NCBI RefSeq assembly: GCF_016026235.1
Contig: NZ_CP065613.1
Source of the DNA: Escherichia coli
GTDB lineage: Bacteria > Pseudomonadota > Gammaproteobacteria > Enterobacterales > Enterobacteriaceae
Length of the DNA stretch: 64,000 nucleotides
Direction: 5' to 3' (one strand)
Below the pieces are notes generated by a model. That model searched no databases. It worked only from the letters and a program-made list of their open reading frames with translations, and was not told the origin of the DNA. Position 1 is the first letter of the stretch. The number at the start of each line of letters is the position of its first letter. This document shows positions 12,957 to 43,726 of the stretch, one piece after another. The position numbers and the translations under genes are program-made.

Positions 12957-13892
12957 ATGTTAACTAAAAGAATATTATTTTCTTTAATGCTAATAGTTTC
13001 ACCAGGCGTGGTGGCAAGCGAGAAAGCGCATGAATTGTATGACAGCATATACGGTGGTAAACCTGCTCCCGATGTTATAAATACACTGCATAAAATGGCT
13101 GAATCGGGAGATATCGACGCGCAGAGCCTGTTAGGCTGGGAATATTATCAGCCTCGCTATGATACCAAACCTGATGTTCAGGAAGCGATTAAATGGTTCG
13201 AGTTAGCCGCTAAACAAGGTGACAGAGAAGCTCCGTTAGCGCTGGGGAGTATCTACTACGACGGTGAGCAGGTGCGGGTGGATTATGCCAAAGCGTATGC
13301 ACTATTTAATCAGGCCGCGCAATACGGTGTGAATTTAGCATGGTCCAGGTTGGGCATGATGTACGCCAATGGTCAGTATGTTGAGGTAGATTGTAAGAAA
13401 GCGAAGGAATATCTTGATAAAGGTGTCCACATTTATGGTGGCCCGGAAGACTTTCTGGCTACTTGTCGAAAAGACATGATTGACAGAAAAACGGTTGAGG
13501 ATATGTTACCCGTGATCACGGTTACCCGTTCTGGGATGCGGGATAATTTTTTAGATAAAGGTTTTTCCTGCATGGATAGCCACTTCGCCACCACCAATAA
13601 ATTAGGCGAAGTGGCCAATCTTCGCGTGACATTCAGCATTCGTCGCCCATCCGGTAAGGAGATTAACCAAACGGTTGGCTTCGCGCCTTTCGGTTTAAAC
13701 CGGCTGAATATTAGCTTTACTGATTACCTATTTGGTTCATTTACCAGTAATTCGTCTCTTATTCTTTATAAACCGGAATTTGAGCGAAAATCTTGTGCAA
13801 CTGTAAGGACCACAATCGTTGCCGCAACGGCAACCATTAACGGCAAGGATGTGGAGTTGCTGAAAGCGGGGGCAATTGAACAAAAGTGGTAA
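12957..13892 (+). CDS. secreted Sel1-like repeat (SLR/TPR-like) protein with unassigned C-terminal domain
   Basis: 311-aa ORF; N-terminal signal peptide MLTKRILFSLMLIVSPGVVAS; repeated AxxWFxxAAxQG/YANG motifs; SD AAGG upstream; sits in an insert absent from K-12 (memory). Confidence 0.75.
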   Translation: MLTKRILFSLMLIVSPGVVASEKAHELYDSIYGGKPAPDVINTLHKMAESGDIDAQSLLGWEYYQPRYDTKPDVQEAIKWFELAAKQGDREAPLALGSIYYDGEQVRVDYAKAYALFNQAAQYGVNLAWSRLGMMYANGQYVEVDCKKAKEYLDKGVHIYGGPEDFLATCRKDMIDRKTVEDMLPVITVTRSGMRDNFLDKGFSCMDSHFATTNKLGEVANLRVTFSIRRPSGKEINQTVGFAPFGLNRLNISFTDYLFGSFTSNSSLILYKPEFERKSCATVRTTIVAATATINGKDVELLKAGAIEQKW

Positions 13893-13947
13893 CGCTACTC
13901 AGCCCCCGGCTGAGGCAAGACTTGCCCTGGCGGGTGGCGATAATAAT

Positions 13948-14490
13948 CTAAGCCGCGAGAATATGCTGAATCGCCAAAAACATAGGTACAGCACCAAAAG
14001 CATTTGGTGTCGCTGAAAGCTGAACAAAGCCGAGACGAGCATAAAAGTTAATGGCGGCAGGGTCAGCATCAAGATAAACCCCTTTAATTGGTAATGCCTG
14101 GTGAATTATTTTTACATGTTCAAAAAAATCACATAGTAGGTCCTGACCAAAGCCCCGCTTTTGATACTTCCGCGCTATCCCCAACATGACTAATCTGACA
14201 ACACCAATTTCTGAAGGTTGTGAACCCTGAAGGACGCCAGAAACGCGTTGTTTTTCCAGCGAATATGCCGTAAAAGTACAGATGCCAATCAGTTCACCAC
14301 TTTGTCTGTCAATAAGTGCTTTAGCCGCACAGTCGCTATTACGCACACTTTTCTTTAGCGATGCGCGTACAAATTTATCGATAACAGGGTTACCGCAATC
14401 AAACTGTTTTTGCCCAGGATAAGTAATATCAGACTGATAATTACAGGAGAGGACTATGGGCAGAGTAATCTCTTCATGCTTGTCGACCAT
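13948..14490 (-). CDS. GNAT-family acetyltransferase toxin (TacT/ItaT/KacT-like type II toxin)
   Basis: 180-aa ORF with GNAT acetyl-CoA motif (RKYQKRGFGQDLL); overlaps upstream antitoxin stop by 17 nt. Confidence 0.8.
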   Translation of the reverse strand: MVDKHEEITLPIVLSCNYQSDITYPGQKQFDCGNPVIDKFVRASLKKSVRNSDCAAKALIDRQSGELIGICTFTAYSLEKQRVSGVLQGSQPSEIGVVRLVMLGIARKYQKRGFGQDLLCDFFEHVKIIHQALPIKGVYLDADPAAINFYARLGFVQLSATPNAFGAVPMFLAIQHILAA

Positions 14491-14785
14491 CGCTGTTTTT
14501 CCTTTTCATTAACGCCTTGAGGGCGAGCGTCGGTTGAGCAGGTTCAGCGATGAGTTGGTTCATCAGTTCCCAGCTTTGATTCGAAAGCTCACGGCGACGT
14601 TGGTTATCAAGCACACTTTCGGCGCGTTCCATAGCAGCGCTCAAAATAAAAGCGCTTAAATCTACCCCAACGGCTTGCGCAGCTTCACGAAGTTTGTTTT
14701 TGGCGTCGGGACTAGTTTTGAGTTCGACCCGCGCATTTTTCAGCGTTTTATCGACATCGTGTAGAGTGGCTGTTTTTCCAGGCAT
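14474..14785 (-). CDS. DUF1778 (RHH-type) antitoxin partner of the GNAT toxin
   Basis: Met at 14785 with SD AGAGG; about 103 aa; precedes and overlaps the toxin gene; the ORF extension to 14851 is likely artefactual. Confidence 0.75.
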   Translation of the reverse strand: MPGKTATLHDVDKTLKNARVELKTSPDAKNKLREAAQAVGVDLSAFILSAAMERAESVLDNQRRRELSNQSWELMNQLIAEPAQPTLALKALMKRKNSDGRQA

Positions 14786-14838
14786 TATGACCTCTTTGAT
14801 TAACTGAATGAAATCGTAGGGAGTCGATCTCATACATA

Positions 14839-14916
14839 ATACGGCTATCAACCGTATGATTAATTTATGTGCATCTGCTCACTCTGTCAAGAGATACGGT
14901 TATTAGCCGTATCTCT
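14839..14916. promoter_or_regulatory. two palindromic operator-like sites (ATACGG-N7-CCGTAT) upstream of the antitoxin gene
   Basis: 14839..14857 ATACGGctatcaaCCGTAT; 14890..14916 AGAGATACGGttattagCCGTATCTCT (10-bp perfect arms). Confidence 0.45.
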
Positions 14917-40752: not shown

Positions 40753-41091
40753 ATGAAGCTGGTGACCGTGATAATCAAACCATTCAAGCTGGAAGACGTT
40801 CGTGAAGCGTTATCTTCCATTGGTATTCAGGGCCTGACCGTCACCGAAGTGAAAGGTTTCGGGCGTCAGAAAGGGCATGCCGAGCTGTACCGGGGGGCGG
40901 AATACAGCGTCAACTTCCTGCCAAAAGTAAAAATTGATGTGGCGATTGCTGATGACCAACTCGATGAAGTGATCGATATCGTCAGTAAGGCGGCTTACAC
41001 CGGAAAAATTGGCGACGGCAAAATCTTCGTCGCTGAATTGCAACGCGTCATTCGTATTCGTACCGGCGAAGCCGACGAAGCGGCGCTGTAA
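40753..41091 (+). CDS. glnK: nitrogen regulatory protein PII-2
   Basis: Met at 40753 gives MKLVTVIIKPFKLEDVREALSSIGIQGLTVTEVKGFGRQKG; 112 aa. Confidence 0.95.
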   Translation: MKLVTVIIKPFKLEDVREALSSIGIQGLTVTEVKGFGRQKGHAELYRGAEYSVNFLPKVKIDVAIADDQLDEVIDIVSKAAYTGKIGDGKIFVAELQRVIRIRTGEADEAAL

Positions 41092-41274
41092 TCTCTGGCA
41101 CACAGCAACAGGAACGAAAAATGAAGATAGCGACGATAAAAACTGGGCTTGCTTCACTGGCGATGCTGCCGGGACTGGTAATGGCTGCACCTGCGGTGGC
41201 CGATAAAGCCGACAATGCGTTTATGATGATTTGTACTGCGCTGGTGCTGTTTATGACTATTCCGGGGATTGCCC

Positions 41275-42567
41275 CTGAGGGATCCCCAGAAAATTTAGTA
41301 AACCATTATCATATTGGTATACCGTTGCTGTAGAACTTTCAGCCCTGCGTCAAGTGACAGTGTGTTTAGTATGAGTGGAGAATGTCGAATCACATTCTCC
41401 GCCAGTTTTAATAACGAGATGACTCGCCTGTGCTTCACTGTATTTGCCTGATATTTATGATGTATCCCTTTGTTTTCCAGGCTGAAACCGCTTAACCACA
41501 TAATGATACTGGCTAATGTTGCGATCAGACTCAATACCGTGACCCGCCCGGATGAATGACTGGCACCAAACCGTAGTCCAAATCCCCAGCGAGGATTTTT
41601 TCATCCCTGAAATTTTGCTCAATTTGCATTCTACGGCTGTATAATTTCATTACCTGTTTTGGCGAGAACTCAGTACTGTTTGTGAAAATAAACCATGGTG
41701 ATTTCCCGGCAGTACGAGCTTTAGCCGTCACCGATGGTCTGGTTGCTCTTTCCTTCGAGCGTTTAAATCTACGACCTTTAGGCTTACTTTTATAAAGATA
41801 AAAATGCCCTTCATGTTGTGCATTTTTATCTCGACCCAGCAGGCCTTCACCTAAATAAATTGCTGTCGTTGATGCTTTTGTGCCTGAGTCCGACACCTTT
41901 TCCCAGCCATTACCAACATTGTAATAATGATTGCCCAGTACCCGGCAAATATAGGTCCAGCCACGGGAGCGGAGCTGTTGGAACCATCGCCCCTGAAAAC
42001 CGGCATCTGTAATAACAATGACATCAGTCCCGGGGGAAAAGCACTCAGCAAGCGATTCCAGAAAACGCTCATGTACATCTGCATTCGCTGTCTGTGATGA
42101 TGGAACGACACAACTCATCAACGGTAAAGAACGCCCGTCACATGCCAGGCTTGCCCGCAAAAGCTGAAAACGAGAGGCATGATAAGCACTCCAGTCAATG
42201 AGTATCACAACACGAGACATTCCCCGCGTAATCTTTTGGGTAATTCGCTGAAAAATGGTGGAAACCTCATTTTGCAAATGTCGATTCCCCAACAGTCGAT
42301 CCACCCGCTTTATTTTGTTTTTAACTGATGCCGTACCGGTTAAATGACGCCCGATACTGGTAAGTGTGAGGGAAGCGCCATTTATTACAGCATTAGTTGC
42401 GTCAATCAGTGATTTTTGACGGTAAAGATGCAAAGGGGCCAGTATGTTGTTAAGGAAATTTTGGCATAATGAACGTGCAGGCATAGTGGTGATCTCCTTG
42501 AAATTGTTAGCACAATCAATTAGATCACATCTCACTATGCCTGTCTTGTTTTCTGGGGATTCCTCAG
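41275..42567 (-). mobile_element. IS10-like (IS4 family) insertion sequence, about 1.29 kb
   Basis: terminal inverted repeats CTGAGGGATCCCCAGAAAA / CTGAGGAATCCCCAGAAAA; 9-bp direct repeat GGGATTGCC at 41265..41273 and 42568..42576; encodes an IS10-like transposase. Confidence 0.88.
41295..42484 (-). pseudogene. IS4-family DDE transposase, apparently frameshifted (two ORFs: 41531..42484 and 41295..41534)
   Basis: N-terminal part carries KIKRVDRLLGNRHL; C-terminal ORF carries HHKYQANTVKHRRVISLLKLAENVIRHS, both resembling IS10 transposase from memory; frames offset by 1 nt at ~41531. Confidence 0.7.
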
Positions 42568-43726
42568 GGGATTGCCCTGTTTTACGGTGGGTTGATTCGC
42601 GGCAAAAACGTGCTGTCGATGCTGACGCAGGTGACGGTGACATTTGCACTGGTCTGTATTCTCTGGGTGGTTTACGGTTACTCGCTGGCGTTTGGTGAGG
42701 GCAACAACTTCTTCGGCAACATTAACTGGTTGATGCTGAAAAACATCGAACTGACGGCGGTGATGGGCAGCATTTATCAGTATATCCACGTAGCGTTTCA
42801 GGGATCGTTTGCCTGCATTACCGTAGGCTTGATAGTTGGGGCGCTGGCGGAACGAATCCGCTTCTCAGCTGTGTTGATTTTCGTGGTGGTATGGCTGACG
42901 CTCTCTTACATTCCAATTGCGCATATGGTCTGGGGCGGTGGTTTGCTGGCTTCTCACGGTGCGCTGGATTTCGCGGGTGGCACGGTGGTGCACATTAACG
43001 CCGCAATCGCCGGTCTGGTGGGCGCGTATCTGATAGGAAAACGCGTGGGCTTCGGTAAAGAGGCGTTTAAACCGCACAACCTGCCGATGGTCTTCACCGG
43101 GACTGCCATTCTCTATATCGGTTGGTTTGGCTTTAACGCCGGGTCAGCGGGCACGGCGAATGAAATCGCGGCACTGGCATTTGTGAATACTGTGGTCGCA
43201 ACGGCGGCGGCAATTCTTGGCTGGATCTTCGGTGAATGGGCGCTGCGTGGTAAGCCTTCACTGCTGGGGGCGTGTTCTGGCGCGATTGCCGGTCTGGTCG
43301 GCGTGACGCCAGCCTGTGGCTACATTGGTGTTGGCGGCGCGTTGATTATCGGCGTGGTAGCTGGTCTGGCGGGCTTGTGGGGCGTTACCATGCTCAAACG
43401 CTTGCTGCGGGTGGATGATCCCTGCGATGTCTTCGGTGTGCACGGCGTTTGTGGCATTGTCGGCTGTATCATGACCGGGATTTTTGCCGCCAGCTCGCTG
43501 GGCGGCGTGGGCTTCGCTGAAGGTGTGACGATGGGCCATCAGTTGCTGGTACAGCTGGAAAGCATTGCCATTACGATCGTCTGGTCCGGTGTGGTGGCAT
43601 TTATTGGCTACAAACTGGCGGATCTGACGGTTGGCCTGCGTGTGCCGGAAGAACAAGAGCGAGAAGGGCTGGACGTCAACAGTCACGGCGAGAATGCCTA
43701 TAACGCGTAACAAGCACTGCAAAAAA

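Follow-up and report, generated by a model that had tools for sequence, protein, structure and literature searches.

What has split the ammonium channel gene amtB in this Escherichia coli chromosome, and what has become of the gene and of the element that split it? The gene lies in a 64-kb stretch of DNA (64,000 nucleotides, referred to here as the window) that is collinear with positions 435.9-494.5 kb of E. coli K-12 at 96-99% identity, and its neighbourhood, mdlB-glnK-amtB-tesB, is that of an E. coli-type chromosome. An earlier note, made from the sequence alone, had proposed that an IS10-like insertion sequence (IS) interrupts amtB between the two copies of a 9-bp target-site duplication. 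We are highly confident of a closely related history, in which one copy of ISEc60 transposed recently into amtB and split it, its transposase gene having later been frameshifted or else miscalled. The interrupted gene is built as follows.

41121..41273, plus strand: 5′ fragment of amtB, codons 1-51 (start at 41121, ending ...MTIPGIA), from the open reading frame (ORF) and the comparison with K-12.
41265..41274, no strand assigned: left copy of the 10-bp target-site duplication, GGGATTGCCC, which is present as a single copy at the same site in K-12 and in E. coli FDAARGOS_943.
41275..42567, minus strand: ISEc60, an IS4-family insertion sequence, 1293 bp as against 1294 bp in intact copies, a 99.9% match over its full length.
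41275..41293, plus strand: terminal inverted repeat CTGAGGGATCCCCAGAAAA, distal to the transposase start, with GATC at its positions 8-11.
42549..42567, minus strand: terminal inverted repeat CTGAGGAATCCCCAGAAAA (TTTTCTGGGGATTCCTCAG on the plus strand), proximal to the transposase start, read from the sequence.
42568..42577, no strand assigned: right copy of the 10-bp target-site duplication, GGGATTGCCC, read from the sequence.
42568..43710, plus strand: 3′ fragment of amtB, codons 49-428 and the stop codon (43708-43710), in frame and without the native start.

The two fragments combined make up a full orthologue. As the earlier note had read it, amtB is normal for 51 codons and then resumes in frame with the duplicated GIA to continue to its stop. 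Alignment to K-12 amtB located both junctions, and removal of 1303 bp (the element and one copy of the repeat) gives back a 1287-bp gene with a 428-amino-acid product. This restored AmtB is 100% identical to that of K-12 (NP_414985.1), the 18 nucleotide differences between the two genes all being synonymous, and there is no second lesion. The proposal of a simple insertion without deletion was borne out, as no deletion or rearrangement was found around the insertion and the flanks are collinear with both K-12 and FDAARGOS_943. Neither a further IS copy nor a composite transposon was found in the 64-kb window, and at the two other places where it departs from K-12 it carries ordinary accessory genes. 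As it stands, the 5′ ORF continues into the IS and stops at 41333, encoding a 70-amino-acid peptide of 51 AmtB and 19 IS-encoded residues. The longest internal ORFs in the 3′ fragment begin at a TTG at 42592 (372 amino acids) and an ATG at 42619 (363 amino acids). Exact look-up found no record of the 372-amino-acid product, and for the 363-amino-acid fragment it returned mostly frameshifted amtB alleles unrelated to this one.

The inserted element was identified by comparison with annotated copies of ISEc60, a name which is that of ISfinder as used in the NCBI annotation ('IS4-like element ISEc60 family transposase', WP_001111632.1). The copy in amtB matches these at 99.9% over 1293 of 1294 bp and differs from the reference copy solely by a 1-bp deletion. 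The insertion point lies in codon 52 of amtB, and the transposase gene is read from the opposite strand. The terminal inverted repeats are complementary at 18 of 19 bases, and the 19-bp repeat pattern has two matches only in the 64 kb, where 0.05 would be expected by chance. The intact 396-amino-acid reference transposase hits the NCBIfam profile NF033591 (transpos_IS4_2) with 360.5 bits (cut-off 152) across profile positions 1-339 of 340, and carries the Pfam domain DDE_Tnp_1 (PF01609, E = 2.8e-20). In a three-way alignment with the transposases of ISSfl1 and IS10A, the catalytic residues D97, D160 and E289 line up with the IS10A motifs. The IS4 signature Y-(2)-R-(3)-E-(6)-K is also present as YSRRMQIEQNFRDEK (Y282, R285, E289 and K296), aligning with YAKRMQIEETFRDLK of IS10A. 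By its profile match, its YREK signature and its terminal repeats with their duplication, ISEc60 is a member of the IS4 family. Moreover, its CTGA...ATCCCC termini and the collinearity of the transposase over the full length are features of the IS10-type subgroup.

To this extent the description of the element as IS10-like holds: its ends match those of ISEc60 and are of IS10 type, and its transposase is collinear with that of IS10. IS10 itself was rejected, since the transposase is 36% identical to that of IS10A over 93% of its length and the duplication is 10 bp rather than 9 bp. ISEc60 resembles IS10/IS10A and ISVsa5 in family, in having a single transposase ORF that fills the element and in a transposase that can be aligned over its whole extent, the DDE residues matching. 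However, the identity to IS10A and ISVsa5 is only 36%, and that to ISSfl1 52%, over 93-100% of the length. IS10 is 1329 bp long and makes a 9-bp duplication at NGCTNAGCN, whereas ISEc60 is 1294 bp long and makes a 10-bp duplication at targets of the type GGGAwwtCCC. The closest named relative, at 52% amino-acid identity, is ISSfl1, an IS4-family element of an S. flexneri virulence-type plasmid, whose terminal repeats (CTGAGGAATCCCCAGAAAAC.. and CTGAGGGATCCCCACAAAA) are near-identical to those of ISEc60. It is a different element, the single copy examined being 1301 bp long with a 9-bp duplication. IS186, an IS4-family element of E. coli K-12, also uses palindromic targets running from G-rich to C-rich, GGGG(N6-7)CCCC, with duplications of about 10 bp or more, but its termini are unrelated to those of ISEc60 and it belongs to another IS4 subgroup.

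The ends of ISEc60, ISSfl1 and IS10A share CTGA..(G/A)ATCCCC. In all three elements the transposase-distal end has GATC as its positions 8-11 (loci L016 and L017; window 41282-41285), and GATC sites are also found upstream of the transposase start (window 42500-42530, minus strand). At the proximal end, GAATCC stands in place of GATC. This arrangement suggests that ISEc60 may be under a Dam control like that of IS10. A simple consensus scan gave no clear pOUT-like promoter in ISEc60. In the searchable literature ISEc60 appears only as an entry in mobile-element tables.

The earlier note had put the duplication at 9 bp. Its termini leave the C at 41274 unassigned, and the duplication was corrected to 10 bp. 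The target in amtB begins with G and ends with C, so that one-base shifts of the boundary could not be decided from this copy alone; other copies were therefore collected and the boundaries set at CTGAG...CTCAG (loci compared, L001-L047). All 23 of the 23 distinct duplication-flanked sites, amtB included, show exactly 10 bp. A few additional copies without matching flanks (for example tandem copies, or copies between which rearrangement has occurred) stand outside the 23. Duplications of 8 bp and 9 bp were rejected because some repeats have A as their first base, or A or T as their last, and because the inverted repeat begins precisely at CTGAG; the sites AGATTGTCCC, GGGATAACCA and GGGATAACCT exclude both shorter readings.

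Across the 23 sites the target consensus is strongly palindromic, cG-GGGAwwtCCC-Cg, and the amtB site, GGGATTGCCC preceded by CCG and followed by TG, conforms to it. The dnaJ/nhaA-hokC site holds ISEc60 in opposite orientations in two genomes (L022 and L047), showing that the element reuses hot spots independently. With a target this strict, the same genes are predicted to be knocked out repeatedly by independent insertions, as at dnaJ/nhaA-hokC. The 10-bp duplication at a palindromic target sets ISEc60 apart from IS10, and both traits appear to be undescribed in the searchable literature. Separately, one copy in GCA_900449095.1 (L019) lacks a matching duplication, with GGAGTCGCCC on one side and GGGTTATCCG on the other. 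Such flanks bear the signature that recombination between two copies would leave, that is, IS-mediated rearrangement or deletion.

We then turn to the age of the insertion. Among complete genomes E. coli FDAARGOS_943 comes closest, with 99.9% identity across the first 25 kb of the window (next best 98.6%). In the 38.4 kb surrounding amtB, 21 single-nucleotide polymorphisms and no indels separate the two (99.95% identity). Checked directly, amtB of FDAARGOS_943 is intact, an empty site with one copy of GGGATTGCCC, and the amtB::ISEc60 insertion is absent from all 5,426 complete RefSeq E. coli genomes. Given an unoccupied site in a 99.95%-identical genome and a restored AmtB without any amino-acid substitution, the insertion is, on this evidence, recent and lineage-specific, in agreement with the recent, clean insertion suggested before. 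Public records contain 10 contigs that encode exactly this 70-amino-acid AmtB′-IS fusion peptide. Of these, a 4.56-Mb contig belongs to GCA_900449985.1 (record prefix UGFA01) and its 8.2-kb locus equals that of the window except for a T7 run in place of T6 (see below); some of the other records are shorter draft contigs that end within the IS. Its recurrence on 10 contigs shows the junction to be a feature of a natural clone and makes a laboratory origin unlikely, and the suggestion of laboratory adaptation was accordingly abandoned. The amtB::ISEc60 junction is a handy marker of this clone, the site being unoccupied in its nearest relative. A literature search for an amtB pseudogene in Shigella found nothing relevant.

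The lineage itself is probably IS-rich and similar to enteroinvasive E. coli (EIEC) or Shigella, because FDAARGOS_943 carries a plasmid (NZ_CP065616.1; L048, L049) with markers resembling those of the invasion plasmid, pINV. As read up to its last 55 kb, this plasmid contains sepA, virK, capU, phoC, a fragment of an NEL-type E3 ligase gene and dozens of IS fragments. The genes sepA, virK, capU and phoC and the NEL-type E3 ligase are markers of the Shigella/EIEC invasion plasmid. ISEc60 is also found on EIEC pINV plasmids and on plasmids of S. dysenteriae and E. albertii, and at least 38 places on the FDAARGOS_943 chromosome carry it. The earlier idea of an active element thus fits the lineage, with its at least 38 copies in the nearest relative, but not the copy in amtB, whose transposase is frameshifted. 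The transposase of this copy reads as follows.

41531..42484, minus strand: truncated transposase ORF, from an ATG at 42484 with AAGGAG upstream to a stop at 41531-41533, retaining D97, D160, E289 and Y-R-E-K.
41596..41601, no strand assigned: T6 run (A6 on the coding strand), T7 in intact copies; the site of the frameshift, from comparison with the reference copy.
41295..41597, minus strand: C-terminal 100 codons of the transposase in the shifted frame, identical to residues 297-396 of the intact protein.

Residues 1-296 of the truncated protein (317 amino acids) are identical to those of the intact 396-amino-acid protein, and 21 out-of-frame residues follow. By exact look-up this 317-amino-acid product is on record only at other loci, in GCA_900449095.1. 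The amtB copy, with its frameshift after residue 296, lacks the intact 396-amino-acid transposase by which an autonomous copy is recognised. The truncated protein is probably inactive, having lost 100 residues that are conserved among ISEc60, ISSfl1 and IS10A, and this copy of ISEc60 is probably crippled and no longer autonomous.

Three other accounts of the locus have to be set against this. ISEc60 is multi-copy in related genomes and repeats often cause misassembly, so that a copy might have been misplaced into amtB when the reads were assembled. We regard this as scarcely credible, given a perfect 10-bp duplication at a site fitting the ISEc60 target consensus and the same junction on the 10 public contigs, the 4.56-Mb contig and the drafts ending inside the IS among them. 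A more serious alternative accepts the insertion and doubts the frameshift: T6 would be a homopolymer miscall, and the amtB copy would encode an intact, autonomous transposase of 396 amino acids. Two independent assemblies with the same amtB junction reach the T run (L013 and L014) and both read T7, the one that spans the whole element encoding an intact transposase. Moreover, a T6-specific 34-mer had no match in the 5,426 complete E. coli genomes, where a neighbouring control 34-mer was found at 96 places, so that T6 is missing from at least 96 ISEc60 copies. Elsewhere T6 was seen only in two other assemblies, with several copies in each, which could reflect a platform-specific undercall. However, the 38.4 kb of flanks show no indel relative to FDAARGOS_943, and all 11 homopolymers of at least 7 nt and all 52 of at least 6 nt agree, which argues that the window is not generally error-prone. 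Polishing with mis-mapped reads from other copies would furthermore have shifted the run towards T7, not T6. A miscall is a plausible but less likely explanation, and the deletion of a T is more probably real than a sequencing error.

The T6 copies elsewhere invite a third account, in which T6 is a genuine, propagating variant of ISEc60 that entered amtB as T6, full-length transposase being made in small amounts through a -1 ribosomal slip or transcriptional slippage on the A6 run, or else supplied in trans from T7 copies. Such copies occur at 7 sites in GCA_000188815.2 and 4 in GCA_900449095.1 (L012, L018-L027); they are otherwise identical to T7 copies, and 10 of the 11 have their own 10-bp duplication. 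The sequence suggests that tRNA-Lys slipping by -1 on GAA AAA ATC would yield ...DEK-NPRWG..., the exact wild-type protein. The look-up that found these copies was, however, able to return T6 copies only; it is biased to that degree and gives no measure of T6 dominance in those genomes. Near-identical genomes carry T7 at the same amtB site, which makes T6 most simply a post-insertion change, no T6 copy is present among the 5,426 complete genomes, and the hairpin downstream of the A6 run is moderate and unremarkable (z = -1.84). We know of no description of programmed frameshifting in elements of the IS10 type. We consider a propagating T6 variant improbable. The same low standing is given to the idea that the A7/T7 tract, just past the catalytic YREK motif, is a slippage-prone on/off switch or a site of low-level -1 frameshifting. 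If it were, T6 copies would not be dead but only throttled or reversibly switched off, and could still spread, which would account for the otherwise identical copies at 11 sites in the two other genomes.

The reading that we prefer remains a recent transposition of ISEc60 into amtB followed by the loss of a T. Four points weigh against parts of it. A 1-bp loss in a homopolymer, with two assemblies at T7, could be an assembly error, and the copy would then be intact and autonomous. The expansion of ISEc60 is seen in the nearest relative, FDAARGOS_943, only. The loss of AmtB and that of the transposase are both deduced from truncation alone. Finally, no outward promoter was detected by a simple consensus scan where the IS abuts the 3′ part of amtB, but that fragment may nevertheless be expressed. 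The order of events, insertion and then loss of the T, is likewise one that we infer.

On the preferred reading, a single ISEc60, an IS10-type element that moves by cut-and-paste through a DDE transposase, jumped into amtB at a preferred palindromic target, where a staggered cut produced the usual 10-bp duplication. This occurred in a clone within an IS-rich, EIEC/Shigella-like lineage in which ISEc60 had multiplied, and after the insertion, or by an error of assembly, the copy would have lost one T of its T7 run. The gene is split after codon 51, within the first transmembrane helix; residues 1-22 of AmtB are its cleaved signal peptide. The cell would be left with the 70-amino-acid N-terminal stub and, at best, also with an N-terminally truncated AmtB devoid of signal peptide and helix 1. 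The AmtB ammonium channel is thus very probably non-functional. The partner of AmtB is encoded directly alongside.

40753..41091, plus strand: glnK (PII-2), an intact ORF of 112 amino acids, upstream of amtB in the same operon and collinear with K-12 glnK (b0450).

GlnK itself is intact but would have lost its membrane partner. Because amtB is the last gene of the operon and faces the convergent tesB, with glnK upstream, no other gene should be affected. From what is established of GlnK and AmtB, growth would be expected to be impaired only at very low ammonium or acidic pH, and membrane sequestration of GlnK would be lost. Annotations should enter amtB as a disrupted gene and the element as ISEc60, which adds one more IS-mediated pseudogene to an IS-rich, EIEC/Shigella-like lineage. 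Taken by itself, this is an ordinary knockout by a catalogued element and is already known from public assemblies. What is mildly new is confined to three by-products: that ISEc60 duplicates 10 bp, that it prefers a palindromic target, and that the T6 allele recurs.

Lastly, three other segments of the window were noted. On the minus strand, positions 1383-2939 hold a 518-amino-acid pentapeptide-repeat gene between pgpA and yajO that is not in K-12 and is annotated in other E. coli as the type III secretion system effector EspY3. It is intact in the window and frameshifted in FDAARGOS_943, a difference that explains the only indel between the two over the first 25 kb. Between yajR and cyoE lies a 2.4-kb island (12957-14851) that K-12 lacks; it encodes a TPR/Sel1-like secreted protein (12957-13892, plus strand) and a GNAT toxin/DUF1778 antitoxin pair (13948-14490 and 14474-14851, minus strand). 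The third segment, 138 bp between mscK and ybaM (59389-59526), is an 83% match, inverted, to the intergenic region between yajD and tsx of K-12, and probably belongs to the dispersed intergenic repeats of ERIC/IRU type.

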